Shown here one piece after another: positions 20,049 through 35,356 of a stretch of DNA of 64,000 nt. The DNA comes from Vulcanimicrobiota bacterium (GTDB lineage: Bacteria; Vulcanimicrobiota; Vulcanimicrobiia; Eremiobacterales; Eremiobacteraceae). The stretch spans positions 96,001 through 160,000 of the forward strand of contig CAWDVP010000004.1 of the NCBI GenBank assembly GCA_963805945.1, read 5' to 3'. How positions within the stretch are numbered: position 1 is the first letter of the stretch; each line of letters opens with the position of its first letter. A program made the translations under genes and the position numbers. The notes under the pieces are model-generated. The model worked only from the letters and a program-made list of their open reading frames with translations. It ran no database searches and was not told where the DNA came from.

Positions 20049-21542
20049 TCAGGGTACCGCATGCAGCGCATTCACGAATGCGTAGATGACGAGCGGCACG
20101 GCGATGACCACATAGATGCGCAAGAGCCATAACAGCGCCGTCACGCCAGGCCCGAGCTTGCGGCGGGGCAGAGGCGGCCTCATTTCGGGATGATGTTCGG
20201 GAACACGGTGATGACGCCGTATGCCGAACCCATGAGCGCGATGATGATGATGATGGCGCCTCCCAGCGCTTGCTCTTCCACCCGTTCGCCAGCGGTCCGA
20301 TGACCTCACGGTCGTTGGCGAGCAGGAGCAAGAACAGCAGCGCCGGCGCCATCAGCAGGGTGGCGATGACGTTGACGGCAGATCGTGATGGCGAGCAGCG
20401 GCGCGTGCGGGATCAGCACGACGGCGGCGGCGACGACGACCGAGACGATGGCCGACGCGTAGAACGGCCGCGCGCTGGCGAAATCCGGCGTTGAGGCTGT
20501 GCGCGCGCGGATACTCTCGCCGAACGCGTAGGCCGAGCTCGTGGAGATCGTCATCGCGGCCACCAGCCCGGCCTCGATGATGCCGAGCGCGAACAGCGTC
20601 GCCGCCTGTGCCCGCCGAGCAACGGCTGCAGCGCGGTCGCGAAGTCGGCGCCGCTGGCGAAGCTGACGAGACGTTGACATGATGCGATGAAGAGCGGCGC
20701 GGCGGCCACGAGAGTGGCGATCGCGGCGACCGCCGCGACCGCCGCGCCGATCGCGGTGTCGAACCGGCCCTGCGGCAGATCGGCTCGCGCCAGGCCTTTG
20801 TCCACCACCGCGCTCTGCTGGAAGAAGATCATCCACGGCGTGACCGTGGCGCCGATGTCGCCAGGATGAGCGTCACGAAGCGCAGCAGTCGAGCCCGCCT
20901 GGCAGCGGGCTCCAGGTGCCGAACGCGTGCGCCAGCGCCGCCCCGCTCGGATGCGCCAAGAGCGCCGCGGGGACGAACAGCAGGTTGAACGCCGCGAGCG
21001 CCAGCACGGCGCGCTCCCAGGTGAAGTAGCGCCGCATGCGAGCGACGCGAAGATCACAGGCCGCGCCGCCCGCCACCGACAGCCAGCGGCGCGGAGATGC
21101 CGAAGTACAGCCCACCGGCCTGGATCGCGATGAACTCGGTGATCAGGGTCAGCACGTTGCCGAACGGCGAGATCGACCATCGAGAAGTAGCCCCAGAACG
21201 GCCGAAGCGGTCGAAGATGAGCTCGGCATGTCCGCGATGCGTCGCGATGCCGAGACGCACCGTCATCTCCTGCACGACGAACGCCATGAAGAACGTGAGC
21301 AGGATGAACGGGACGAAGAAACCGATGCCGTAGGTCGCGCCGGTCGTCGCGTACGAGAGCATGCTCGGGCCGTCGTTCTCGCCGAGCATGACCAGAATGC
21401 CGGGACCCGCGAGCAGGAAGTACAACCAGATGGGCTGGTGTTCGCGGCGCGCTTCGACCACCCGCGCTCGATCGCGCGCGCGCAGCGTCTCCTCGCGCGA
21501 CGCGCGCTGGTCCGCGGCGGAGACCTCCACGAACTCACCCAT
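20049..21542 (-). pseudogene. Nramp-family divalent metal transporter (multiple frameshifts, likely sequence errors)
   Basis: GPGILVMLGENDG, QEMTVRLG, IGATVTPWMIFFQQS and LLLLANDRE motifs split over several frames. Confidence 0.8.
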
Positions 21543-22230
21543 GCGCGGCAGCCTTCACCCGGATCGCCGTGCAGCGCACTTCGCCGGCGGCCTTGCGCGC
21601 GACGGTCAAAGATCGCCGGCCGATCCGCAACCGGATGCCGGCCGCGCTTGCGGACTCCACCGTGCCGCGTAAACCCGGCAGCACGCCTCGTTCGCGCAGA
21701 TACTTGACCGCCGCTTCATCGCGATCGTCGAGAAACGTGACGACCACCGTGTCGCCGCGACCGGTATCCGAAAGACGCATGCCCTTCGCCTTGACGTTCG
21801 CACCGCGCGGCGACGGGATGGGATGCCCATGCGGATCGGTCGCCGGATTGCCGAGGAAGTCGGCGAGTCGGCGCGCGATGTCGTCCGAGATCGCGTGCTC
21901 GATCTTCTCCGCGTCCGCGTGGACGCGCTCGAGCGGCACCTTCAGCGCGAGATGGAGGAACGTCTCGACGAGGCGATGCCGGCGCACCATGTCGAGCGCG
22001 AGACGCGTGCCGCGCGCGGTCAGCTGCAGCAGGCCGCCCGCGCCGAGGTCGCGCACGAAGCCGCGCCGCTGCAGGTCGCGCACCAGCTTGCTCACCGACG
22101 CGCGTGACACGCCGAGGCGCCGCGCCACATCCGCCGACTTGACGGGCTCGCCTCCGCCGAGCTGGTAGATCGCCTTGCAGTAGTCCTGCCGCGCACGCTC
22201 CGGCGAACGGTCGCCGCCGGCGTTAACCAT
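21535..22230 (-). CDS. DtxR/MntR-family metal-dependent repressor with FeoA/SH3 domain
   Basis: QDYCKAIY, VSRASVS, RRHRLVETFL, AEKIEH and DPHGHPIP motifs. Confidence 0.92.
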   Translation of the reverse strand: MVNAGGDRSPERARQDYCKAIYQLGGGEPVKSADVARRLGVSRASVSKLVRDLQRRGFVRDLGAGGLLQLTARGTRLALDMVRRHRLVETFLHLALKVPLERVHADAEKIEHAISDDIARRLADFLGNPATDPHGHPIPSPRGANVKAKGMRLSDTGRGDTVVVTFLDDRDEAAVKYLRERGVLPGLRGTVESASAAGIRLRIGRRSLTVARKAAGEVRCTAIRVKAAAHG

Positions 22231-22253
22231 AGCTAACGTCAACCATGGTTAAC
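22222..22253. promoter_or_regulatory. Tandem 16-bp imperfect palindromes, candidate DtxR/MntR operator
   Basis: GTTAACCATAGCTAAC followed by GTCAACCATGGTTAAC, overlapping the start codon. Confidence 0.6.
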
Positions 22254-22287
22254 AGTTTAGCGGCTGGCCGGCCCTCTTCCTCTGGCG

Positions 22288-22316
22288 ATGTAGGGGCCGA
22301 TCTTCAGATCGGCCCT
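22288..22316 (+). repeat. REP-like palindrome (GTAG type)
   Basis: atgtagGGGCCGATC-ttca-GATCGGCCC. Confidence 0.8.
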
Positions 22317-22735
22317 CACGAGCAACGCGCGCACAGGCCGAACAGCTCGAGCTTGTGCTGGGTGAGGGTGAAATGCAGCCTTGAGGTGATCGTGCGGGCG
22401 AAGCGCTCGATCGAGGCGCACGGCACGTCGTCGACCTTACCGCACTTGACGCAGACCGCGTGGTGGTGATGGGCGATCGGGCAGAACACGTACGCGTTCT
22501 CGCCGTGCGGCCCGGGCGACCTCGAGGCGGCGCCCACGTGCTCCAGCACTTCGAGCGTCCGATAGACCGTGGCCAGTCCGATGCGCGGCCGGCGCGCGGC
22601 AAGTCGCTCGTGCAGCTGCTGCGGCGTGACGTAACGGCGCACGCGCGCGAACTCGGCGACGATCGCCTTGCGCTGGCTGGTGACGCGGCAGCCGTTCTTC
22701 GCGAGGGCGTCGTAGACGGCGGTGGAGGCGGTCAT
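22316..22735 (-). CDS. Fur-family regulator (Zur-like by context)
   Basis: RVTSQR, IGLATVYRTL, HHHHAVCVKCG and GLCARC motifs. Confidence 0.9.
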   Translation of the reverse strand: MTASTAVYDALAKNGCRVTSQRKAIVAEFARVRRYVTPQQLHERLAARRPRIGLATVYRTLEVLEHVGAASRSPGPHGENAYVFCPIAHHHHAVCVKCGKVDDVPCASIERFARTITSRLHFTLTQHKLELFGLCARCS

Positions 22736-23592
22736 GCCTGCACCTTTTCGCGTTGCCGGCGCGCCTCGATCACCTGGGTGAGCAGCGAGCGGCGCTTGGG
22801 CGAGACAACACGCGAGGAAGAAGCACGGCGTGGCGGTGAGCACGATGGTCGAGCCGGACGCCGCATCGAGATAGTAGGAGGCGTACAGTCCGATGACGGC
22901 CGAGCCCACGCCGACGGCCGCCGAGGTCGCCATCATCGGGCCGAAGCGATTCGGTGAGCTGGTACGCGGTGGCGGCAGGCGTCACGAGCAGCGCCGCGAC
23001 GAGCACGATGCCGGCCGCCTGCAGCGAGACGATGATGGTCACCGCGATGATCACGAGCAGCAGATTGCTCAGCGCGACCGTCGGCAGGCCGCTCGCCTGC
23101 GCCATGAGCGGATCGAACGACGCGAACAGCAGCTCCTTGTAGAACGCGAGATGAGCAGCAGCGCGACGATGGCGAGCCCGCGACGAGAGCGATGTCCGTC
23201 TTGTCGACGAGAGCACGTTGCCGAACAGGAAATCCTGCAGATCGACCATGTAGGTGCGCGTGCGCGACATGAGCAGCACGCCGAGCGCGAACACCGCGGT
23301 GAACAGCACGCCGATCGCGGTGTCCATCGAGACCACGAACGGCGGCTCACCGCGCCGATGCCAAGCGCGGTTAGGATGGCGAAGATGAGGCCGCCCACGT
23401 ACAGGTTATCTTGAACATATAGGCGAGCACGATGCCCAGAAACGATGCGTGCGCGAGGCCGTCGCCGATGAACGCGAGATTGCGCAGCACGACGTAGACG
23501 CCGACGACGCGAACACCAGGCCGATGAGCGTCGACGCGATGAGCGCGCGCTGCATGAACTCGTGCTGCAGCGGGAGCGAGCAGCCAGTCCAC
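22732..23592 (-). pseudogene. Metal ABC transporter permease, ZnuB/MntB-like (frameshifted)
   Basis: FMQRAL, AFIGDGLAHAS, DTAIG, LFGN, SFDP and LLVTPAATA motifs across several frames. Confidence 0.8.
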
Positions 23593-23593
23593 G

Positions 23594-24488
23594 TCAGTGC
23601 TGCATCGAGCGGACGGCCGCTGCGCTTCAGGGATGAGCGAGCACGTGGCTGCCGAAGGTCGCCGAGAGGGTCGCGTCGGTGAGCACCTCGCTCGGCGGAC
23701 CGTAGGCGATGACGCGATGGTTGAGGCAGAGCACCTTGTCGAACCAGGTGGCGACGCACGAAAGGTCGTGCGTCTCGCGATGATGGTCATGCCGGCTTTC
23801 TGCCGCGCTTCGAGCAGCGTGAAGATCGCGTGCTGGCTGGTCGCGTCGACGCCGGCGATCGGCTCGTCGAGCAGCAGCAACGCCGGGTTCTGCACCAGCG
23901 AGCGCGCGACGAAGACGCGCTGCTGCTGGCCGCCCGAAAGTTCGCCGATCTGCGCGCGCGCGAAGTCGCGCATGCCGACTTCGTCGAGCGCGCTCATGGC
24001 GGCGCGCTTGTCCTCGTCCTTGGGCCGATGGAAGAGACCGAGCTTCCCGTATACTCCCATGAGCACGACGTCGAAGACGCTCACCGGAAAAGTCCAGTTC
24101 ACCGCTTCGGTCTGCGGCACATAGCCGACGCCCGGCCCTGGCCGGGAGGCCCGCCGAGCACGTCGATGCTGCCGCAGCCGGCTCGCAGGCCGGCGATGAC
24201 CTTCAGCAAAGTGGACTTGCCGGAGCCGTTAGGCCCGATGATGCCGATGAACTCGCCGCGCCGACGTCGAAGGTGACTTCGTCGAGCACGTCGCGGCCGA
24301 AGTAGCCCGCGCAGATGCCTCCATCCAGACCGCATAGCGCGAGTCGTCGGCGGCGGCTTCCATTCAAGCGGATGGTGGCCTTCGTGCCGGTGCAGAGTGC
24401 GGGGCGACCGGTGCGACCGTGTGGCGTGGTCGCGCGGTGCGGCGGGCGCCGCCGGATCGACGTGGGTGTGGTCGTGCGGTTCGTTCAT
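23594..24488 (-). pseudogene. Metal ABC transporter ATPase, ZnuC-like, with His-rich N-terminus (frameshifted)
   Basis: GPNGSGKSTLL, LSGGQQQRV and LLLDEP motifs. Confidence 0.8.
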
Positions 24489-25369
24489 TGCTGTAGTGCC
24501 TTACGATCGGTCGACGTCGTAGCGCATCAACCGTCGTATGTGGCAAGCTCCGGCGTCGTGCCGAGGGTGTCATCGTAGAGATCGGTGACCGTTTGGATGC
24601 CGGCGCTCGAGGCGAGCTCGTCGGCGAGTTTCCGCGAGAATTGCGGCTCCGCGAAGACGGCGTGCACATGGTGGCGCCGCGCGTCAGGCGATGAGCGCTG
24701 CAGCGCGCCCGCCGACGGCTCTGGCCGGGTGACGGTTCGATCGCGCCGACGTCGTGCATGCCATAGCGCTTGTCGAAGTAGTACCACGCGTCGTGGAAGC
24801 AGATCATGACGCGCGGCGGGCGGGATGGTGGCGATCCGCGCGATCCAGCTATCGAGCGTGCTGAGCGCGCGCGTACGTCTTGCTCGCTTCGCCGCGTTGT
24901 AGGCCGCGTTGGCCGGACGGTCTCGCGCAGTGCGGCGCCGATCTTCTTCGCGTAGTCCTGCGCATAGGTCGCATCCAGCCACAGATGGGGATTGCCGGGC
25001 TCGCTTGCGCGTGCGGCCCGCACCGGCATGCCGTCGGAGAGCACGATCAGCGTGCCTTCGTGTTCGCGACGCTGGCAGCAGTTTGTCCATCCAAGCTCGA
25101 GGCCCGCGCCGTTCTTCACGATGAGCTGGGCCTGTGCGAGCTCGACGAGGTCCTGCGGCGACGGTTCGTACGTCTCCGGCGCGGCGCCGATGGGCACGAG
25201 GCTGACGACATCGATTTGTCGCCGCCGACAGGACTTGACGATCGCGCGAGCGTGGACAAGGTCGCCATGACGTTGATGCGGCCGCCGGACGTCGTGCGAT
25301 GACGCGCTCGTCTGGACTGCGGCGCGCAGGCGCCGGCGAGCAGCGCGAGCACGAGAGCCGCTGCCACAT
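24485..25369 (-). pseudogene. Metal ABC transporter substrate-binding protein, ZnuA/TroA-like (frameshifted)
   Basis: PETYEPSP, NGAGLE, NPHLWLD, FHDAWYYF and VFAEPQ motifs. Confidence 0.8.
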
Positions 25370-25383
25370 GCGGCCACGATTCT

Positions 25384-25404
25384 TATCGAGAATCATTCTC
25401 GATA
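25384..25404. promoter_or_regulatory. Fur/Zur box upstream of the metal ABC operon
   Basis: Perfect 10-1-10 palindrome TATCGAGAAT-C-ATTCTCGATA about 15 nt upstream of the znuA-like start. Confidence 0.75.
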
Positions 25405-25450
25405 GCCTTTCGAGCCGTACCTAGGCCCGACCTTCGAGCCGCCCGGAGGC

Positions 25451-25478
25451 TGGACCGGTCGAGTTTACTCGACCGTCC
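25451..25478 (+). repeat. REP-like palindrome
   Basis: tggacCGGTCGAG-ttta-CTCGACCGtcc. Confidence 0.75.
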
Positions 25479-25480
25479 GG

Positions 25481-26814
25481 CTAGAAATCGTCGTCGGGCG
25501 GCACCGTCGAGAGCGGCGCCCCAGGAAGTACTGGGCTCGTCGATCCGCCGTGATGACCTGGAATGGCGTCGGCGTCTGGCCATAGTTGAAGCAGTCCGCG
25601 AGGTCGTCGGCGCGCGCGTCGGTGTAGCCCAGCGACGGCAGGCCGAACGTCTCCTCGATGTACTTGAGGATGCTGCCGTATTCGTGCTGCACGTGCGACA
25701 CGTAGCCGGGCTTCGCATACGGCGAGACGACGATGAGCGGCACGCGGAAGCCGAGCTCGTACGAGTTGTAGATCTGCGGCTGGACGTGATCGAACCAGCC
25801 GCCCCAATCGTCCCAGGTGATGAAGATCGCGGTGTTCTGCCAGTACGGGCTCTGGCCGACCGCGTTGACGATCGAGGCCACCCACGCCGGGCCCGAGCCG
25901 TCGGTGGACAGCGCGTGATCCGAGGCCGCCGCGCTCGGGATGACCCATGAGACTGGCGCAGCTGTCCCGCCGCGATATCGGTGAGGACTGTCGTCTCGGC
26001 ACGATCACGTTCGCCCAGTCCGCGCCGTAGCGAATGTGCTGGATCGCGTCTGGCGCGGACCACAGGCGCCGTTGTACGAATCGTAGTAGCGCCAGGTGAC
26101 GCCGTCGCGTCGAGCTCGTCGAACAGCACCGGGTGGTCGAAGCATGGCGGCAGCATCGTCGCCTCGCTGCCCGACGGGTCGATCATCGCCACCAGCGACG
26201 AGGTTCGAGCCGTCGCAGTTGAGGGTGTTCGCCTACGATTGTATTTCGGGTTCTCGGAGGCGAGCAGGTTGCTGCCGACCGCGTTGGTGGACGTTCCCGA
26301 GATGATGTACTGGTGCGCGGGAAAACTCGGGCCCTGATTCGTCTCGAACATCCGGTCGGCGAACGTGTAGCGCTCCGCCATAGTGAAGTACGGCTGCACC
26401 TCGGCTTGCGGCACGTAGCCGAACGCCGTGAGCGGGCTGCACGCATGGCTCGGGCAGTTTAAACCACCAGGTCCCAACCGTTCATCGAGCCGCCGGCGTA
26501 CTCGGTCTTGAAGCCGGTATGGCTGTGGTCGATATCGTACGGCGCCGTGATGTCGACGGGCTGCAGCGGCACGACTTGCCCCATCGAGTTGGTCCCGCTG
26601 TTGGCGGTGTCGGCGCCGGCAAGCCGTGGAAGAGGTTGTCGGTTGAGCGGTTCTCCTGGAAGATGATGATGACGTATTTGATCTTGCCTTGCCCGGGCGG
26701 TGGCGTGGGGCTAGGGCCCGGCAGCACGCCGCCACCGCTGCCGCTTCCACCGCACGCGGCCAGCGAGAACACAGCCGTCAACGCGATCGCCAAGCCAAGC
26801 ACTGAGCGCTTCAT
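25481..26814 (-). pseudogene. Phosphoesterase/phospholipase C-family lipoprotein (frameshifted)
   Basis: Lipobox LAAC; QENRSTDNLF, GPSFPAH, TWDDWGGWFDHV and GFRVP motifs. Confidence 0.82.
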
Positions 26815-26857
26815 AGTTCCAGATTAGCACCCTCGCGCGGTTCCGTGCCTGAGAACG

Positions 26858-26879
26858 CGATGAGAACGATTTCTCATCG
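26858..26879. promoter_or_regulatory. Fur/Zur-like palindrome
   Basis: CGATGAGAA-cgat-TTCTCATCG upstream of the phosphoesterase. Confidence 0.5.
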
Positions 26880-26965
26880 GGATTTCACCCTTGTGGGGGT
26901 AAAAGAGCGCGCGCTCGCTTCGTTCTTATGGATAGAGAAACGGGCGGGCACAGAGGAGACGGGAC

Positions 26966-27091
26966 ATGGTGCAAGAGACAGCAGCGACGACCGGCAGCGG
27001 ATCGGCGCTCACCCGCGCCGAGATGCACGCTTACTACATCGCGTTCGTGACCATGACGCGGGTGGGCTTCGACCCGCGCGCAGCTCGCTGA
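26966..27091 (+). CDS. Small hypothetical protein (about 41 aa)
   Basis: GAGGAG SD followed by MVQETAATTGSGSALTRAEMHAYYIAFVTMTRVGFDP; the end is uncertain. Confidence 0.35.
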   Translation: MVQETAATTGSGSALTRAEMHAYYIAFVTMTRVGFDPRAAR

Positions 27092-27104
27092 CCAAGTCGG
27101 CTTC

Positions 27105-27443
27105 TTAGGCCGTCAGCAGCTCGTCGCCTTCGCTGGGCGCAAGCTCGATGAGTTCGACTTCTCCGTCGGGAAAGCGAGCGATGATCTGGGAGCTCTCCGC
27201 CCACCGCCTCGATATAGCGACGCAGCGTGCTCACATAGACATCCGTGCAATGCTCGAGTTACGACACCTCGGGCTCGCGTCATGTCGAGTATGCCCGCAA
27301 GCGTCTCTTGTGTGAGCTGGCGCGCGCGCCGCACTTCGCCGAGCAGGGCTGCGCGCTTCTTCCAATCTTGCTCTGCGAGCTCTACAACGCCCGGTTTCGA
27401 GTGGGTTGCACGAATCTCGCTCCATCTTCTTGGTACTGGGCAT
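27105..27443 (-). pseudogene. XRE/HTH antitoxin, HigA-like (frameshifted)
   Basis: RRARQLTQETLAGIL and STLRRYIEAVGGEL in different frames. Confidence 0.75.
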
Positions 27444-27811
27444 CAGATCAAACCCTCGGCTTTCGAGCTCTTCAAGGTGGTAGGCATGAGAGTTTCGGTC
27501 AGCGATCGGCACCATGCGCTCGTAGAATCGTCCGTCACCGGTCTTGTCGCCGCCGATAAGCAGAATCGCTACGCGTCGCGGGTCGAAGGCGAAGAACGTG
27601 CGCGAAGTAGGACGGCCCCCGAGCCTGAGTCCGCAACTCCTTCATGTTGGCGAATCGCGAATCTCGAACTGCGTCGGCGTATGGGCGAGCTAGACCCGGA
27701 CCGCTTTCTTCGAGGAGTTTGATCGAGACGTAAAGCGCGCGCTGCTCGGCGATGCCCGAAGGATCCGTACCACCCCTTGAACTCGTTCGTGCTCTCGACC
27801 ACCCATATCAC
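27440..27811 (-). pseudogene. RelE/HigB-like toxin (frameshifted)
   Basis: WVVESTNEFKGWY N-terminus and MVPIAD...YHLEEL C-terminus; toxin-first order upstream of the XRE gene. Confidence 0.7.
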
Positions 27812-27815
27812 CGCT

Positions 27816-27844
27816 ATTATACCTTCTATATCATAGTCTGTCAA
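27816..27844 (-). promoter_or_regulatory. Consensus sigma70 promoter of the TA operon
   Basis: TTGACA-17 bp-TATAAT; overlapping inverted repeat ATACCTT...AAGGTAT. Confidence 0.8.
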
Positions 27845-27871
27845 AGGTATGAGGCCATCGCCACAACGCAA

Positions 27872-27901
27872 AGAGGCCGACCTGAAGGTCGGCCTCTACA
27901 T
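27872..27901 (-). repeat. REP-like palindrome (GTAG type)
   Basis: Minus strand reads atgtAGAGGCCGACC-ttca-GGTCGGCCTCT; supplies the TAG of the transglycosylase. Confidence 0.85.
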
Positions 27902-28627
27902 GGAGCCGCGGGCGTTGAATAAGCCCAGAGCGTGCGCCCGGTAGTCCGCTAAGATCGAGCTCACGTAGTTGCGCGTCTCCGCATACGGCGGCACGCCGTG
28001 GTACCTGTCGACCGCGCCTGAACCCGCGTTGTAGGCGGCGAGCGCGAGGTCGAGCCGGCCGCCATACTGATCGATAAGACCGCGCAGCATCTTCGCCCCC
28101 GCGTCCACGTTTTGCACAGGATCGTACGGGTCGTTGACGCCGAGCGATTTCGCGGTGTCCGGCATGAGCTGCATGAGGCCCATCGCGCCGGCCGACGACT
28201 GCGCCTTCGGATTGAACCCAGATTCTTGCTGGATGACCGCGGTGAGCAGCGCCGGATCGAGCTCATGCCGCTGTGCGCTGCGCTGGATGAGGCCGTCATA
28301 CGGATTTGCCGCCTGCGCCTGCGATTGGGCGCGGCGGGTGGGAGTGGACGGCTGCGCGGCCGACGCGGCGGATTCGGCGCTGCGCGCGAGCGACTGCAGC
28401 GCTTTCATGAACGTGCGCTCGATGGACTTGAGCTGGCTGGAGAGCTGTGTGATGAGCTTGGACAGGCTCATCTCGTTCGGATCGGTATGATTATCGCCGC
28501 TGGCGCTGGGCGCCGGCTCGGACGGCGGAAGACCTGTATCGCCGCCTGCGTCGATCGGACGCGTCGCGACGGGCAACGTCCAGCGTAAACTCGAGGGGTC
28601 GGGCGTATCGATCGGTGCGATGCTCAT
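27896..28627 (-). CDS. Lytic transglycosylase (SLT domain)
   Basis: IQQESGFNP, GAMGLMQLMP, AAYNAG and PPYAETRNYV motifs. Confidence 0.92.
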   Translation of the reverse strand: MSIAPIDTPDPSSLRWTLPVATRPIDAGGDTGLPPSEPAPSASGDNHTDPNEMSLSKLITQLSSQLKSIERTFMKALQSLARSAESAASAAQPSTPTRRAQSQAQAANPYDGLIQRSAQRHELDPALLTAVIQQESGFNPKAQSSAGAMGLMQLMPDTAKSLGVNDPYDPVQNVDAGAKMLRGLIDQYGGRLDLALAAYNAGSGAVDRYHGVPPYAETRNYVSSILADYRAHALGLFNARGSM

Positions 28628-28707
28628 CGCCAATCCTTTCCGCAAGAGAACAGCGCTCGTACTATCACGCGATCGCCTGCATCGGTCCAGGGGCGCGGCG
28701 CAATCGC

Positions 28708-29978
28708 TCAGGCGATCGCCCCAAGCGCCTCGATCGGATCGCCGGCCCTGCCGTCGCCGTCGAAGACGAATGCCTCGAGCTCCTCGCGCGCGGCGACACA
28801 CGCGTCGAGCCAGCCATCCGAGCCGGCGCGGTACGCGCCGATAGCGAAGAGATCTTCTGCACCGGCGAGCGTGGCGAGCGCGTGGCGGACGATCGCCGCG
28901 TCGTGCCGATGCTCGGGTGTGACGATCTCCGGCATCGCGCGGCTCAAGCTGCGCAGCACGTCGATCGCCGGGTAGCGCGCGGCTTCGGCGAAGCGCCGCG
29001 ACAGCGCGATGTGCCCGTCGAGCAGCGCGCGCACCGCGTCGGTGACGGGCTCGAATTCGTCGTCGCCGTCGACCAAGACCGTGTACACCGCGGTGATCGA
29101 GCCCTGCGGACGCGCGCCGGCCCGCTCGACGAGCCGCGCGAGTGCGAGCGGCATCGAGGGCGGATGGCCGCGCTGCGCTGGTGGCTCGCCGGCCGCGAGC
29201 GCCATCTCGCGCCACGCCGCGGCGACGCGGGTGAGCGAATCGATGACGAGCAGCACGCGTCGGCCGCTGCGGCACAGCCATTCCGCTTGTGCGGTCGCGG
29301 TTCGGGCCGCGGTGAAGCGCTCGATCGCGCTCGTTTCGGAGGTCGCGCAATATAAGGAAGTGCTCGGCCAGCACGGCAGCACTTGAAGCCGGTCGCGAGC
29401 CTCTGCGGCCTCGCGGGCGCGCTCACCGACGAGCGCCACGACACGCGCATCGACCGCCGCGTTTCCGACGATGCGCCGCAGCAGCGTCGTTTTGCCGACG
29501 CCTGCGCCGGCGGTGAGCGAGACGCGCTGTCCGTAACCGAGCGTCGCGAACGCGTCGATCGCGGCGACACCGGTGCGCAAGACCCGCGCGATGGGAGCGC
29601 GGGCGCGCAGCGGCAAGCGCGGCGGATCCAGCGGCGCGACGATGCGCGCGCGGCTGCCGCGCGCCCGGCCCCACGCGTCGGCGACTGCGCCGAGCAGCGC
29701 CGTACCGACGTATGCGCCGAGCCTGCCGAGTTCGCTAAGCGCCGGCGCGCCGACCGCGACGCCGGCGACGCCGCCCAACGGCGTGCAGCGCGCGCCGTCG
29801 CCATCCACCGCGCGCACTTCGGCGAGCACGCGACCGCCGTCGCGCGTGGCGATCGTCAGGACATCGCCCGGCGTCAGCGCGGGCGCGCGGACCACCACGA
29901 TGTCGGCGCCCACGCTCGTGACACAACCACGGCTATGAATCCGTCGGCGTGCTCGAAGGTGAGCGGCAAATCACGCAT
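28708..29978 (-). CDS. fliI: FliI/YscN-family export ATPase (probable 1-nt deletion near the start)
   Basis: AGAGVGKTT, GERARE, LLVIDSLTR, GSITAVYTVLVDGDD and LDGHIALSR motifs. ATG 29978 joins the frame if one T is restored. Confidence 0.88.
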
Positions 29979-30545
29979 ACGCGGCGGCGCGCGCGAGCAG
30001 CAGCGCGCGCTCTTCGATCGTCGCACCGAGCGTGCCGGCGTCGGTGGTGACGCTGACGGCACCTCGCGCGAGCGAGGCATCCGCGACGACATCCGCCTCG
30101 CGGCTCGGCCGGAACGCGATCGCATCCTCGGGATGAAGATGGATCGCGGCGCGGCCCACGCGGCCGCACGCCCGTAGCGCTTCATCGACGTAACGCGTCA
30201 GCTCGTCCGCGTCGGCCGCGACGGCTTTGCGCAGCGCGCGGGCGCAGGCGATGGCGGCGAAGCGGATCGCCTCTTCCCGCAGCGCGACGTGAGCCTCTTC
30301 TTCATCGCGTACGCGCCTGCGGTCGTGGCGTACGGCGGTGAGCCTCATCGCCTCCGCCATCACGTTCGACATCAGCCTCGGGCTCGCGCGACTCGACGAT
30401 CTCCGTGACCGGAGCGTTCGCCGCGCGCGCTGTCGGCGATGACGGTGATTTGTTCGAGAACCGGCATGATCTCCGACGGGACATCGGCCTGAGGCGCCCC
30501 GTGCCGCCGCGGGCGCAGCGGCACGAACTCACGCTCGTCGTGCAT
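29971..30545 (-). CDS. fliH: Short FliH/SctL-like protein (N-terminal part frameshifted)
   Basis: IHLHPED..VVADASLARGAVSVTTDAGTLGA C-terminal domain; position before fliI. Confidence 0.65.
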
Positions 30546-31935
30546 CGTGCAGACATGCCTCGACGGAAGCGCGGCGCAGCGGGCCGTAGGATTCCAGCAC
30601 GCGCTCGCGCAGCCCGCGCGGCAGCGACGAGAGCACGTACGCCGCCGTGCGCGGCGATTCGCGATCGAGCGTGTCGCGCAAGCGGCTCACGACGGGATCG
30701 GCGGGCTTGGCTGTGCGATGCGGCCAAAACGTCAGGCACAGCGCGACCATGAGCACCGCCGCGGCGGGCAGCACCGCGCGGGCGAACGGCGCGGGTGGCG
30801 GCACTGCAGGCGCAGCCTTCGCGGCGAACGGCACCGCCTCGACCACCACCTCGTCGCCTGCTTCGAGGTCCGCGCCGGCGGCCGCGCGCACCAACGCGGC
30901 GATCGGCTGCGAACGCTCGGCATCCGTGCGCGCCGCGTCGAGAAAGACCGCCACAGAGATCTTGGCGAGCGCGTCGGCGGCGGTCGAGCGGTGCTCGATG
31001 ATGGTGTCGTACGCATAGTGCCGCGCCGTGCGCTCCTTGGAAAGCCGCCGGCCGTTCTCAAGCCCGTGCTCGCTGCCGGTGTCGGCGTCGAGCAGTCCAT
31101 GCGGCACCACACGTGTGCTCTGCACTGTGCTCTCGGCGCCCTGGCTGCGCACGCTCACGCGCACTACCGCGGCGCCGGCGCCGAGCACCGCGTCGAGCGC
31201 TGTCTGCACGTTCGCCTGGATGCGCGTCTCGCGGCTCGCGGCGCGATCGGGTGCGGCAGCGCCGAGCAACGCGCCCGAGCCGTCCACGATCGCCACGCGA
31301 TCCGGATTGAGTCCCGGATATCCCGCGGCGACGAAACGGCGGATGCCGGCGACGGTCGACGCCGCCAGCTGCACGCCGGGCTGCAGGATGAGCTGCACGC
31401 TCGCGCTCGGCGGCGAACGCTCCGCTTCGTCCGCGAACGCGTCTCCGCTCGCCGGCGCGATGACCACCGACGCATCCGCGACGCCGTCCATGCGCCGCAG
31501 CCCGCTCACCAAGTCTCCCTCGATGCCGGAGCGGCGGCGATCGTCGACGACCTCAGGCGGCGCGAGCGGGTTGTCTTGGGTCTGGAGCACGTCCGCCGTG
31601 GTCGGCACGTAATGATGAGGCAGATCGGCGAGCGCCAAGCGCAGCAGCAGATCGCGCCGGCGATGGGCGTTGACGAAGATCTGCGTGCCTTGGGCGTCGG
31701 CGGAGAACGGCTCGTTCCACAGCGTGAGCGCCTGCGCGACTTCTGCGACTTGCCGCGGGTGCAGCGGCGCGTCGAACAGCGCGACCGGAGCGGCGCCGCG
31801 CACGACCAGCGCGATGACAGTTGCCACGACCACACAGGCGGCGGCAGCGCCAAGCGCCGCGGTCCGGCGTCGCCGTATCCAGAAGACGCAGTCCTCGACG
31901 ACGCGGGGCAGTTTCGCGGGCAGCAGGGCCAGCAC
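30529..31935 (-). CDS. fliF: FliF/YscJ-like M-ring protein with a C-terminal FliG-middle-like segment
   Basis: TM, IEGDL..LRRMDGVADASV, PSASV, NPDRVAIVDGSG, ISVAV, second TM, then ESPRTAAYVLSSLP. Confidence 0.8.
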   Translation of the reverse strand: MLALLPAKLPRVVEDCVFWIRRRRTAALGAAAACVVVATVIALVVRGAAPVALFDAPLHPRQVAEVAQALTLWNEPFSADAQGTQIFVNAHRRRDLLLRLALADLPHHYVPTTADVLQTQDNPLAPPEVVDDRRRSGIEGDLVSGLRRMDGVADASVVIAPASGDAFADEAERSPPSASVQLILQPGVQLAASTVAGIRRFVAAGYPGLNPDRVAIVDGSGALLGAAAPDRAASRETRIQANVQTALDAVLGAGAAVVRVSVRSQGAESTVQSTRVVPHGLLDADTGSEHGLENGRRLSKERTARHYAYDTIIEHRSTAADALAKISVAVFLDAARTDAERSQPIAALVRAAAGADLEAGDEVVVEAVPFAAKAAPAVPPPAPFARAVLPAAAVLMVALCLTFWPHRTAKPADPVVSRLRDTLDRESPRTAAYVLSSLPRGLRERVLESYGPLRRASVEACLHDARRA

Positions 31936-31937
31936 GA

Positions 31938-32225
31938 TTAGAGCTGCGTCTGCAGCAGCGTCGAGACGGCGTTGCTGACGCGCGAGGCGGTGATCGCCGC
32001 GACCTCCAGCATGACGTCCGCCTTGGCGCGGGCGATCGCCGCCTCGGCGACCCCGCCGTGTCCTGCGGCGAGCGCTGCGGCCGCGCCGTCGGCGCCTTCC
32101 AACGAGCGCTGTGCTTGATCCACCAGCGCAGCGAACGACGAACCAGCCGAAGGCCCGGCGGCAGGGGCACCTTCGACGAGCACGGCTGGGCGCAGCGCCG
32201 CGATCGGCTCGATGCCGCCCGTCAC
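31938..32225 (-). CDS. fliE: Hook-basal body protein FliE-like
   Basis: SFAALV..AIARAKADVMLE..VSTLLQTQL; synteny. Confidence 0.75.
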   Translation of the reverse strand: MTGGIEPIAALRPAVLVEGAPAAGPSAGSSFAALVDQAQRSLEGADGAAAALAAGHGGVAEAAIARAKADVMLEVAAITASRVSNAVSTLLQTQL

Positions 32226-32692
32226 GGCTGCTCGATCTCCAGCGCTTGCGTGTCCATGAGTTTGGCGGCTTGGAGCGAAGCGACGTCGGCGTCGTACGCG
32301 CGCCCGGCGGTGATCAGACCGATCATCTGCGAGATCGAATCCACGTCGGAGACCTCGACGTAGCCTTTGTGCGGGCCGGAGACGGCGGCCAGCGGATTGC
32401 CTGGATCGAGGCGGTATTGCGGTTCGTATGGCTGCTCGGTGAGTCCGGCGAAACGCACCGCCGCGGGCGCCGTGTCCGTGTCGTCGAAGGAGATGGCGAA
32501 GTCGTCTGCCGACGCCGCATCGAGCGCGGCGGAGAACGAAGACTCGAACAGCGCGGCCTGTGCACGAAACGGCACACCGTCCGCCTGCGTCACGTTCGCG
32601 TGGGCGAGGTTGTTCGCGATGACGTCCATCTGCACGCGCTGGGCTGCCATGCCGCTCGCCGCGATATCGAACGCGCTCAGCGGCTCGCTCAT
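32222..32692 (-). CDS. flgC: Basal-body rod protein FlgC
   Basis: IAASGMAAQRVQMDVIANNLAHAN, DPGNPLA..GYV and RAYDA motifs. Confidence 0.92.
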   Translation of the reverse strand: MSEPLSAFDIAASGMAAQRVQMDVIANNLAHANVTQADGVPFRAQAALFESSFSAALDAASADDFAISFDDTDTAPAAVRFAGLTEQPYEPQYRLDPGNPLAAVSGPHKGYVEVSDVDSISQMIGLITAGRAYDADVASLQAAKLMDTQALEIEQP

Positions 32693-33003
32693 CGGCGCGA
32701 TTCTTCCGCGACCGTGCGCAGCTCGCGCAGCAGCGCGTGCGCCTGCGTCGCGAGCGCGCGATACCATACCGCGTTCTGGGCGCTCGCGCCCATGGCGTAC
32801 TCGACGGTCGCCGGGGCGGACCCAGATTCCACATCGTGCAACGCAGCGGCGAAGCGCATACCGCCCGCCGTCGCCTGCGCCTCGAGCGTGGCATCGCGCA
32901 TGGTGAACCCCGGCGTGTTGGCATTGGCGACGTCGCTCGCCAGCAGACCGGCGCGGTAGCGCCCGAACGCCATCGCCTGTTCGATGCTCTCGAAGACCGT
33001 CAT
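32689..33003 (-). CDS. flgB: Short basal-body rod protein FlgB-like
   Basis: LASDVANANTPGF and VEYAMGASAQNAVWYRAL motifs. Confidence 0.8.
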   Translation of the reverse strand: MTVFESIEQAMAFGRYRAGLLASDVANANTPGFTMRDATLEAQATAGGMRFAAALHDVESGSAPATVEYAMGASAQNAVWYRALATQAHALLRELRTVAEESRR

Positions 33004-33065
33004 GGCTGCCAGGGTAGCGCCCATACGTGAGCGGGAATTGAACGGCGTGTGAAAAACAGATACAC

Positions 33066-33524
33066 ATGAAGGCTCCGCTCGCCGTCGCCGCGCTCGCCGC
33101 CATCGCACTGGCCGCCATTGCGGCGCCGACACAAGCGCTGGAGCCCCAAGACGGCGATCAGCAGACGCCGGTGCAGGTCACGCTGCCTCAAGGCATGACC
33201 GCTACCACGACCACCGTCATGCCAGGCCCGACGCCCGACACGAAATACCTCGTCATCAACTGGCTGCGTCTGTTCAACCAGAGCAAGCTGCAACCGCTCA
33301 ATATCGATTACAAAGACTTCCGCCTGCGCGCCGAAAACGGCGACTTCTTCGACGTCGACCAGAAAGTGACGAGATCGCTGCTCAATCCCCTGTCCGAGGA
33401 GTCCCTTGGGGTGGGCCAGGAAGCGACCGGCTCCCTCGCGTTCAAGGTGCCTGCGACGATGCGGACGGCGCATTTGGGCTATTACGTCATCCAGTTCGAT
33501 GCGATCTACCCCTCGAACAACTAG
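33066..33524 (+). CDS. Secreted DUF4352-like Ig-fold protein
   Basis: Signal peptide; DFRLRAENG and LGVGQEATGSLAFKVP motifs. Confidence 0.6.
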   Translation: MKAPLAVAALAAIALAAIAAPTQALEPQDGDQQTPVQVTLPQGMTATTTTVMPGPTPDTKYLVINWLRLFNQSKLQPLNIDYKDFRLRAENGDFFDVDQKVTRSLLNPLSEESLGVGQEATGSLAFKVPATMRTAHLGYYVIQFDAIYPSNN

Positions 33525-33568: not shown

Positions 33569-35356
33569 ATGGAACACGATCGGCGCGACAATCCTTGGGA
33601 GCGCATCGCCGCGCGCCTCGACGAGGCGCTCGAGGAGGGGCGTAGCCTCGCCGAACGCCCGCAGAGCGCGCCGCGCGCCGCATCCACCGCCAATAAGCTG
33701 CTCGATCTGCTCGCCCGCGCCCGTTCCGAGGTGAACGCGCGCGAACTCGAGGCGAGCGCGGCGTCCGCACGCGCACAACGGCTTCAGAGCGAACTCGATA
33801 TCCAGCGGCGGCGCGCCGACACGCTCGTGCGGATCGGCAAGGCGATCAACGCGGTGCGGCGGCTCGATTCGCTGCTCCAGCTCGTCGTCGATCTTGCCGT
33901 CGAGGCGACCGGCGCCGAGCGCGGGCTCATCGTCGTGCCGGACCCCGCCGGCGGCCGCCAGGAGTTCAGCGCAGGCGCCAACCTCGATCCCGACATCGTC
34001 GCGCGGCCTGAGTTCGCGGTGAGCCGTTCGATCATCGAACGCGTCTTCAGCGAGGGCACGCCGCTCGTCACCACCGACGCGCAGAACGACCCGGACGTCG
34101 ACGCGTCGCCGAGCATCCGCTCGCTGCACATCCGCTCGATCAACTGCGTGCCGATCCAGAGCAAGAGCGGCACCATCGGCGTCATCTATGTGGACTCGCG
34201 CATCCGCACGGACAGCCTGTTCCAGCACGATCCCGAACTGCTCTCGACCATCGCCGACCAGGCGGCGGTCGCGATCGACAACGCGCGCCTGTACGACGAC
34301 TGGAACCGCAGCTTCAACGAACTGTCGACGATCAAGGCGCAGACCGACGAGATCCTCGAGTCGATCGCCTCGGGCGTCATCGTGCTCGATCCGAACGACG
34401 TGATCGCGCAGTTCAACCGCGCGGCAGAGATCACGTTCGGCCTCTCCGCATCGACGCTCGAAGGCCGCCACGCGCGCATCCTCAACTCGTGGCTGCCGGG
34501 CTTCACGACGCTGCTCGAACAGTACAAGAAACGGCCGGAATCGCGCGCCGAGGTCGAGATGCGCGGCACGCACTTCGTGCGCGGCCCGATCGTGCTGCAG
34601 GCGGCGTTCCTGCGCATCCATCCGTTGTCCGGCGCCGGCGTCGGCACGGCCGTCGTGCTCAACGACCTCACCGCGCGGCGCCTGCTCGAAGCGGAGAACC
34701 AAGCGCAGATCGAGCACAGCGAAAAGGTCGCGCGATCGTTCGAGCGCTATCTCGCGCCGCACGTCGTCAGCGGCTTGCTGCTCGATCCGGATAAGGTGCC
34801 GCTCGGCGGCACGCGCCTCACCGCGACGATGCTGTTCGCCGATATCCGCGGCTTCACCGAGCTCTCCGAACGGCTCATGCCTGAAGAAGTCGTCGACATG
34901 CTCAACCGCTACCTCGCGCCGACGGTCGACGTCGTGCTCGCCAACCTCGGCTTGCTCGACAAGTACTATGGCGACGGCATCATGGCGGTCTTCGGCGCAC
35001 CGCGGCCAGCGAACGATGACGCCAACCGCGCGGTGCTCGCCGCGCGCCAGATCCTCGAACAGGTGGAGCTGCTCAACGCGCAGCCGGGCGTGCATTGGCC
35101 GCTGTCGGTGAGCATCGGCCTGGCGACGGGCGACGTCGTCGCGGGCAACATCGGCTCGGAACGGCGGCTCGAGTACACCGTCGTCGGCAGCGCGGTCAAT
35201 CTCGCGCAGCGCTTGCAGTCGATCGCCGAACCGAACCAGATCCTCGCGGACGCGCGCACGTATGAGAAGGTGCGCGGGCAGATCGCGGCGACCCAGCGTC
35301 AGGCGCGCATCAAGGGCCGCGCCGGGCTGACGACCGTCTACGTCTTGCACGGCTAG
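33569..35356 (+). CDS. Class III adenylate cyclase with GAF and PAS domains
   Basis: GAF IRSINCVPI..GVIYVDS; PAS FNRAAE; catalytic LFADIRGFT, DKYYGDG and EYTVVGSAVNLAQRL. Confidence 0.93.
   Translation: MEHDRRDNPWERIAARLDEALEEGRSLAERPQSAPRAASTANKLLDLLARARSEVNARELEASAASARAQRLQSELDIQRRRADTLVRIGKAINAVRRLDSLLQLVVDLAVEATGAERGLIVVPDPAGGRQEFSAGANLDPDIVARPEFAVSRSIIERVFSEGTPLVTTDAQNDPDVDASPSIRSLHIRSINCVPIQSKSGTIGVIYVDSRIRTDSLFQHDPELLSTIADQAAVAIDNARLYDDWNRSFNELSTIKAQTDEILESIASGVIVLDPNDVIAQFNRAAEITFGLSASTLEGRHARILNSWLPGFTTLLEQYKKRPESRAEVEMRGTHFVRGPIVLQAAFLRIHPLSGAGVGTAVVLNDLTARRLLEAENQAQIEHSEKVARSFERYLAPHVVSGLLLDPDKVPLGGTRLTATMLFADIRGFTELSERLMPEEVVDMLNRYLAPTVDVVLANLGLLDKYYGDGIMAVFGAPRPANDDANRAVLAARQILEQVELLNAQPGVHWPLSVSIGLATGDVVAGNIGSERRLEYTVVGSAVNLAQRLQSIAEPNQILADARTYEKVRGQIAATQRQARIKGRAGLTTVYVLHG

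Follow-up and report, generated by a model that had tools for sequence, protein, structure and literature searches.

An Eremiobacterota operon for a flagellum-type ring, proximal rod and export ATPase, with a FliG middle-domain stub fused to FliF

The window analysed here, a stretch of 64,000 nucleotides of contig CAWDVP010000004.1 (positions 96,001 to 160,000, assembly GCA_963805945.1) from a bacterium of the phylum Eremiobacterota, also named WPS-2 or Vulcanimicrobiota, carries on its minus strand, at 27896-33003, a flagellum-type set of seven genes in the order flgB-flgC-fliE-fliF-fliH-fliI, followed by the gene of an SLT-family lytic transglycosylase (hereafter SLT). Its ring protein, FliF, ends in a cytoplasmic tail that is homologous to the N-terminal half of the middle domain of FliG, the two being aligned at the EHPQT/R motif. 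A stub of this middle domain is fused to the ring, and the FliG N-terminal and torque-generating C-terminal domains are gone. The operon recurs with the same gene order in related genomes, where it evolves under purifying selection. Its products may well form a non-rotary module of ring, rod and ATPase, served by an export gate whose genes lie elsewhere in the genome.

FliF from the window possesses two transmembrane helices (approximately residues 27-45 and 385-403) and exceeds the Pfam gathering scores of both YscJ_FliF (86.3 bits) and YscJ_FliF_C (54.1 bits). Its profile matches Salmonella FliF in the PDB (6scn, E 2e-26), and its AlphaFold2 (AF2) model, with a predicted local distance difference test score (pLDDT) of 79, shows long collar strands and retrieves in Foldseek the FliF of B. 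subtilis (2.9e-24) and Salmonella entries for the membrane and supramembrane (MS) ring (~1e-16 to 1e-18). The ring protein is of the two-transmembrane-helix FliF type. Family members measure 467-498 aa, and one of them, the 472-aa orthologue at related locus L004, reaches 65.2 bits with the FliF equivalog model of NCBIfam, under its cut-off of 129.75, and 36.5 bits with the SctJ model.

The tail that follows the second helix comprises 64 residues, with ten invariant positions in 23 sequences. When its profile was compared with the PDB, FliG chains were the only ones retrieved at E<0.001 (4qrm_B, 4.4e-5; 3soh_B, 5.9e-5; 3ajc, 1.6e-4; 1lkv, 6.6e-4; 4fhr_B, 9.7e-4). By hhalign, the tail aligns to residues 148-191 of the FliG of L024 (E 4.7e-6), a canonical flagellar locus recovered in the genome scan described below, and its comparison with the C-terminus of a canonical FliF disclosed no similarity (probability 0.2%). 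The AF2 model of the tail consists of four helices (pLDDT 83), and its top Foldseek matches are again FliG, with TM-scores of 0.72-0.73 and root-mean-square deviations of 0.8-1.3 Å over 48-51 columns, though with E-values of only 0.36-0.66, such values being weak for a query as short as this one. An exhaustive search of 1.84 billion representatives returned the family's own tails first and FliG proteins next, and 9 of the 18 tail-profile matches that were scanned with Pfam, out of 60, were of the FliG type. PF14841 (FliG_M) is moreover present in 88% and 98% of the members of two Vulcanimicrobiota FliF clusters of the ESM Atlas. The tail-profile search also found one full FliF-FliG fusion, P0153, of 838 aa; FliF forms of 820-2340 aa were not seen among 8000 candidates, which is weak evidence.

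Consecutive genes of the operon overlap or nearly abut, the fliI ATG at 29978 for instance overlapping the fliH stop, and space is left neither for fliG, as fliH overlaps the end of fliF by 17 nt, nor for fliJ, the gap between fliI and SLT being 80 nt. The sequence surveyed comprised the window and 10 kb on either side of 23 related operons (the loci). Canonical FliG, FliJ and FliK queries gave no tblastn match at E<1e-3 in window or loci, and a FliG with its C-terminal domain, bound to the ring through FliG_N as in a rotary flagellum, was likewise not found there. Pfam scanning of 89 ORFs disclosed no flagellar, mot or export-gate family among the 82 window ORFs outside the operon, and no gate component, FliM/FliN, stator, distal-rod, hook or filament protein was detected in the window or in the Pfam-scanned representatives of the ORF clusters that flank the 23 operons on up to 10 kb. 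The first-pass annotation of this DNA, which had placed the seven genes at these coordinates and in this order and had remarked on the lack of a separate fliJ and of hook, filament, mot, flhAB and fliPQR genes in the window, is borne out on all these points. Its statement that fliG is absent holds for the gene itself but has to be amended, since a middle-domain stub survives fused to FliF.

A protein search with FliF recovered at least 199 homologues of about 470 aa, whose source names, where given, are mostly Eremiobacteraeota; the 120 homologues listed are mostly 460-500 aa long and 45-100% identical. Scanning of genomes yielded 24 loci, of which 23 are of the Eremiobacterota type with the operon and one, L024, is canonical. 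Seventeen loci span flgB to SLT, all in the same order (fliE falling below the tblastn threshold of E 1e-3 in 3), and fliG, fliJ and fliK occur in 0 of the 23 operons. Related loci also have flanks in common, rplM-rpsI and a nucleotide cyclase gene on one side and znuACB-fur on the other. The conserved order of these housekeeping flanks indicates vertical inheritance since the divergence of lineages with only 49-54% FliF identity, and horizontal transfer and chance were rejected on account of the same synteny.

Ratios of nonsynonymous to synonymous substitution (dN/dS, Nei-Gojobori) in the least saturated pair, L014-L017, are 0.058 for FlgB, 0.077 for FlgC, 0.018 for FliE, 0.131 for FliF, 0.254 for FliH, 0.097 for FliI and 0.125 for SLT, and those of housekeeping neighbours (ribosomal, tRNA-synthetase and tRNA-modification genes) are similar, at 0.036-0.10. 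Four further pairs give 0.06-0.31 for the operon, the overall range being 0.02-0.31, and its ORFs are intact and of consistent length across 19-22 loci. Under such purifying selection the operon is not a decaying relic at the level of the family, in which it is functional. Relaxed selection with patchy decay, which the first-pass annotation had named as an outcome that would tell against its proposal, is not what the family displays. Five of the loci (L005, L011, L014, L015 and L017) stem from metagenome-assembled genomes labelled Binatus, Acidiferrales or proteobacterium and share the Eremiobacterota operon and flanks; these labels or bins are probably wrong.

In the window itself, fliH and fliI are interrupted. 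The true start of FliH is the ATG at 30545, its first 57 codons are out of frame with the 133-aa core (Pfam 32.9 bits, E 7.2e-8), and one or two frameshifts fall within the variable linker at ~30330-30440; the N-terminal piece carries, in another frame, the family motif F-x-P-F/L-x-P-R-R. fliI is shifted ~15 codons past its ATG. Relatives have a FliH of 165-216 aa and a FliI of 427-458 aa, so that the short FliH of the first-pass annotation does not reflect the family: it looks short in the window because fliH and fliI are frameshifted. The two genes share this condition with their surroundings, at least 12 frameshifts being clustered in the stretch from 20.3 to 30.5 kb: znuB has four, znuC two, znuA one, an Nramp gene at least two and a phosphoesterase gene at least one, besides those of fliI and fliH. 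Were the frameshifts real, the operon would be a relic that is dying at least in this genome, a reading that the shifts in fliH, fliI and the neighbouring genes would suit. We judge this very improbable, considering that (i) the cluster contains a single in-frame stop for its at least 12 frameshifts, (ii) its fragments match orthologues as well as intact genes do, (iii) window genes outside this stretch are unbroken, and (iv) the family keeps intact ORFs at the low dN/dS given above. The single stop and the clean remainder of the window suggest that 20300-30500 is a locally unpolished or low-coverage piece of assembly, and assembly errors are the simplest and most likely account of the fliH and fliI breaks.

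All three proximal-rod proteins of the rotary flagellum, FliE, FlgB and FlgC, are present. FlgC exceeds the Pfam gathering scores (Flg_bb_rod, 28.6 bits; Flg_bbr_C, 33.5 bits), and its orthologue at L004 reaches 108.5 bits on the FlgC equivalog of NCBIfam, above the cut-off of 102.1. FlgB and FliE, which fall below the Pfam cut-offs as single sequences (13.5 and 16.2 bits), were recognised as families. Built from 22 sequences with a mean column identity of 66%, the FlgB profile matches Salmonella FlgB (7bin_Q, E 5.7e-6) over residues 3-47, and 19 of 19 FliE family members match PF02049 at E<=0.1 (best 3.7e-8), the family aligning by hhalign with the canonical FliE of L024 (probability 96.5%, E 8.8e-10); no solved structure in the PDB was matched by the FliE profile. 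FlgB had been described as short, and it is so throughout the family, at 100-106 aa in 22 sequences.

The SLT domain of the transglycosylase is unambiguous (117.4 bits, E 3.2e-34, Pfam cut-off 21.3) and is preceded by an acidic, signal-less N-terminus with one long helix. Among NCBIfam models, the 'flagellar assembly lytic transglycosylase' of the Borrelia BB0259 type fits it best (96.6 bits, cut-off 234), and the idea that the apparatus has a peptidoglycan-opening enzyme of its own is supported by a flagellar-type model, though under its cut-off. In 19 of the 19 loci that reach far enough, the gene is located downstream of fliI, directly in 16 and after inserts in 3, a position from which a dedicated flagellar role may be ascribed to it. 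The inserts, of 2-3.2 kb between fliI and SLT (L006 13346-15250, L012 13233-16176, L022 9552-11621), carry unrelated genes, among them an RES-domain pair and an FGE-sulfatase-like gene, and the SLT gene of L012 looks N-terminally shortened.

A Sec-like N-terminus is found in neither FlgB (0/22), FlgC (0/22) nor SLT (0/19), and a type III gate is therefore expected elsewhere in the genome. This gate might be that of an ordinary flagellum with split loci, in which the operon would be the sole flgB-fliI cluster and a FliG of its own, FliM/N, stators, distal rod, hook and filament would also be encoded elsewhere. Rod proteins and SLT without signals would indeed need a flagellar export gate, the inspection covered the window and 10 kb around the 23 operons, an SLT downstream of fliI-fliJ in L024 shows this arrangement to be normal for flagella, and Planctomycetota clusters carry FliF-FliG fusions that include FliG_C. 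A split flagellum nevertheless seems rather unlikely to us. The FliF tail is FliG_M-like and has no similarity to the FliF C-terminus that binds FliG_N in canonical systems, 23 of 23 operons have neither fliG nor fliJ in the usual slots, and both FliF and FliI score well under the NCBIfam equivalog cut-offs. Vulcanimicrobium alpinus, the sole cultured member of the phylum, has moreover neither flagella nor a flagellin gene, and its gene table (Table S8) lists fliN and no fliG, fliM or motAB, as far as the accessible part of that report goes (PMC9758169).

FliI exceeds the Pfam cut-offs of ATP-synt_ab (218.6 bits, 9.8e-65) and T3SS_ATPase_C (45.7 bits), and its Walker A, GERGRE and Walker B motifs are invariant in 21 of 21 rows, in keeping with the retention of Walker A and B that had been noticed in the window copy. 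The best NCBIfam model is FliI clade 1 (352 bits, under the 619 cut-off), and the motifs and C-terminal domain of the FliI/SctN subfamily are present at a subfamily score of 331.3 vs a cut-off of 379.5 bits. Against the PDB, FliI scores 408 bits with Salmonella FliI, 404 with EscN and at most 239 with F1 beta; comparisons with the PDB and the Atlas do not discriminate between a flagellar and an injectisome origin. The closeness of the EscN and FliI scores also suits an accessory of a non-flagellar type III system, in which the FliF-FliG(M) ring and FliH/FliI would operate together with an injectisome-like gate and a platform of the SctQ type, both encoded at other sites. The same combination of FliF and FliG_M exists in Chlamydiaceae, where binding to SctQ has been proposed according to the available text (PMC4768692), and a fliN is annotated in V. 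alpinus in the portion of its description at hand (PMC9758169). Such an accessory is improbable, given that flgB, flgC and fliE are flagellum-specific rod genes under selection, that Pfam detected no secretin SctC, SctD, SctJ lipoprotein or needle SctF in the window or loci, and that the literature searched reports no injectisome from this phylum.

Table 1. Features of the operon and of its divergent neighbours (window coordinates).
Feature	Coordinates	Strand	Product or description	Basis and remarks
flgB	32689..33003	-	proximal-rod protein, 104 aa	ATG 33003 is the conserved start in relatives
flgC	32222..32692	-	proximal-rod protein, 156 aa	Pfam Flg_bb_rod + Flg_bbr_C
fliE	31938..32225	-	rod adaptor, 95 aa, GTG start	family match to PF02049
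fliF	30529..31935	-	MS-ring protein, 468 aa	Pfam YscJ_FliF + YscJ_FliF_C
FliF cytoplasmic tail, residues 405-468	30529..30723	-	FliG middle (ARM) domain stub, E-x-P-x-T motif	
fliH	29971..30545	-	ATPase regulator, frameshifted linker; core 29971-30372	Pfam FliH
fliI	28708..29978	-	type III export ATPase; frameshift near 29935, body 28708-29913	Pfam ATP-synt_ab + T3SS_ATPase_C
SLT-family lytic transglycosylase	27896..28627	-	243 aa	Pfam SLT
Short divergent flgB/DUF4352-cyclase intergenic region	33004..33065	.		read from sequence
DUF4352 gene	33066..33524	+	conserved divergent neighbour of the operon	Pfam
GAF-PAS class III nucleotide cyclase	33569..35356	+	divergent neighbour of flgB	Pfam

The surroundings of the operon were inspected as well (Table 1). 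The cyclase gene adjoins flgB in 20 of the 21 loci that extend upstream, and its product is 60-90% identical to the window copy and, with a dN/dS of 0.02-0.09, more conserved than the operon; a functional or regulatory link between cyclase and operon is possible. A protein of ~1000 aa that combines four GAF domains with a diguanylate cyclase domain of the GGDEF type adjoins the cyclase, upstream of it, in ten loci (L006, L010, L011, L012, L014, L015, L017, L018, L021 and L022) and is absent from the window. It could accordingly be imagined that ring, ATPase and rod-like proteins build a gate-less, non-secretory envelope or signalling platform tied to the cyclase, as an extremely conserved cyclase in 20 of 21 loci, an additional GAF-GGDEF gene in ten and the lack of gate genes nearby would fit. 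We give little credence to such a scaffold, because rod proteins and transglycosylase work beyond the cytoplasm and still carry no Sec signal, and because the invariant catalytic motifs of FliI would imply, as judged from sequence, an active export ATPase.

Upstream of flgB, the motif G[GT]TCA-N8-24-CTAnnnTG occurs in 9 of 22 sequences (the window and 8 of 21 loci), in a pattern that was widened post hoc and is met in 0.2% of random 80-nt windows; a narrower first promoter pattern had no match upstream of flgB. The motif ends 6-8 nt before the flgB ATG in 7 sequences, which hints at a putative, nearly leaderless flgB transcript. An Rfam scan of 20-40 kb of the window returned no riboswitch or RNA family, its sole match being a chance microRNA (E 0.36). 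Regarding composition, the G+C content of the window is ~66-67%, and the operon region (28000-32000) is richer than this average (0.71-0.72). On the other side of the operon, 25383-27896, from SLT to znuA, holds the phosphoesterase-family gene and ~1.1 kb of unannotated sequence of lower G+C; in L001-L004, znuA stands directly after SLT.

As to how a non-rotary module might work, the FliF ring with its built-in FliG_M stub would assemble around a type III export gate encoded elsewhere, and FliH-FliI would dock on its underside, either the FliG-like stub or a FliN/SctQ-like partner or both mediating the contact; the conserved N-terminal motif of FliH and the EHPQR-like E-x-P-x-T motif of the stub are candidate contacts. 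In canonical motors, the positions of these two motifs are the FliN- and FliM-binding sites. FliE, FlgB, FlgC and the transglycosylase would then be exported to form a short rod through the peptidoglycan, and the machine would serve export or envelope spanning, not swimming. With no FliG C-terminal domain on the ring, stators could not drive the structure through FliF. The non-rotating apparatus put forward in the first-pass annotation is thus retained in part: a conserved and selected unit stands, lacking the torque domain and having its own SLT, and rotation loss and function are inferred.

Several points weigh against this non-rotary reading. The window and the 10-kb flanks of the 23 operons showed no flhA, flhB or fliPQR gene, the gate being accordingly assumed and not observed; the FliG search covered the window and the 23 loci of genomes that extend further; full FliF-FliG fusions exist in other lineages, so that the fusion alone is no proof that rotation was lost; V. 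alpinus may not be a carrier of the operon; and both fliH and fliI are broken in the window copy. On a wider scale, we would only tentatively entertain that the operon represents a phylum-wide, independently evolved non-rotating derivative of the basal body, in which the stub replaces the switch complex, just the proximal rod and a dedicated peptidoglycan-cutting enzyme persist, and the adjacent cyclic-nucleotide and cyclic di-GMP (c-di-GMP) genes exert control.

It has long been asked how a rotary flagellum can become an export machine without motility, and answers have mostly come from injectisomes and from a few reduced systems of endosymbionts and pathogens. Among the latter, the filament-less basal bodies of Buchnera are flagellum-derived, lack flagellin and have been proposed to act as exporters, while keeping the genes for gate, C-ring, hook and full rod, a set not seen here in window or loci. 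If the wider reading of a phylum-wide derivative is true, the Eremiobacterota operon would show, in living bacteria, an early stage in the passage from flagellum to secretion machine. As a selected core with a FliF-FliG(M) fusion, it would give a second case, more open to experiment, in abundant free-living soil bacteria. Genome-based trait prediction would also be affected, as carriers would score as partly flagellated and the only cultured relative is described, in the accessible text, as having no flagella (PMC9758169). No paper describing the seven-gene operon in Eremiobacterota was found in the literature searched, and the available portions of PMC10746217, PMC11095265 and PMC7203096 hold nothing relevant to flagellar genes of the phylum.

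The canonical basal body, as known from Salmonella and as encoded in L024, shares with the Eremiobacterota system the gene order, the homology of all seven genes, a FliF with two transmembrane helices and an active-looking FliI. L024 reads flgB-flgC-fliE-fliF-fliG-fliH-fliI-fliJ-SLT-fliK, the transglycosylase likewise lying past the ATPase genes. This order is, we presume, not the usual betaproteobacterial one; the locus is labelled Burkholderiales and contains two adjacent FliG-like ORFs at 11555-13421. The Eremiobacterota operon departs from the canonical one in the lack of fliG, fliJ and fliK, in a FliF tail that resembles FliG_M instead of a FliG_N-binding peptide, and in FliF and FliI scores under the NCBIfam equivalog cut-offs. 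Relative to Salmonella, ~55-80 residues of the collar region of FliF are unmatched, and FlgB has 104 vs 138 aa.

FliF is joined to FliG in one chain also in natural fusions, namely P0153 and two Planctomycetota clusters of the Atlas with 62 and 162 members (630 and 691 aa, respectively) that carry FliG_M and FliG_C, the latter domain in 94% of the members of the 691-aa cluster. P0153, however, keeps FliG_N, FliG_M and FliG_C, in contrast to the 64-residue middle-domain stub of Eremiobacterota, and its FliF part is distant from theirs (hhalign E 4.3e-6 vs 2.4e-22 for L024). Engineered FliF-FliG fusions of Salmonella exist as well, as cited in the available text of PMC4768692.

Lysobacter enzymogenes OH11 resembles the hosts considered here in being a free-living soil bacterium that has no flagellin and retains flagellar export parts, with which secretion was demonstrated experimentally; in the accessible part of that work, FliG, FliM, FliH and FliJ are not found there either (PMC7688988). 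OH11 differs in having flhA, flhB, fliPQR and the hook, distal-rod and L/P-ring genes (PMC7688988), whereas the Eremiobacterota set is far smaller, with its gate unobserved in window and loci.

The closest parallel comes from the Chlamydiaceae, non-flagellated bacteria with a partial set of flagellar genes, in which Bergeron described in 2016 a FliF in combination with FliG_M (PMC4768692), so that the Eremiobacterota system is not categorically new. As far as the available text of that study tells, the likeness comprises a region after the second transmembrane helix of FliF that is homologous to the FliG middle domain, the lack of a separate fliG beside it, and a host that is not known to be flagellated and has kept part of the flagellar set (PMC4768692). 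By contrast, the chlamydial FliF, of ~330 aa, lacks part of the SctJ-like and SpoIIIAG-like domains (PMC4768692), both Pfam FliF domains being present in the 467-498 aa of the Eremiobacterota protein, which is in addition encoded in an operon with flgB, flgC, fliE, fliH, fliI and the transglycosylase, in free-living soil bacteria for which the literature searched knows no injectisome. Should the reading of a phylum-wide derivative be correct, the puzzling FliF-FliG system of chlamydiae would have a counterpart in free-living bacteria that can possibly be cultured. The role of the chlamydial-type fusion would also become testable, through the partner of a FliG stub that has no C-ring gene next to it. 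What sets the operon apart from that of the Chlamydiaceae is the full-length periplasmic ring, the seven-gene operon and the free-living soil hosts.

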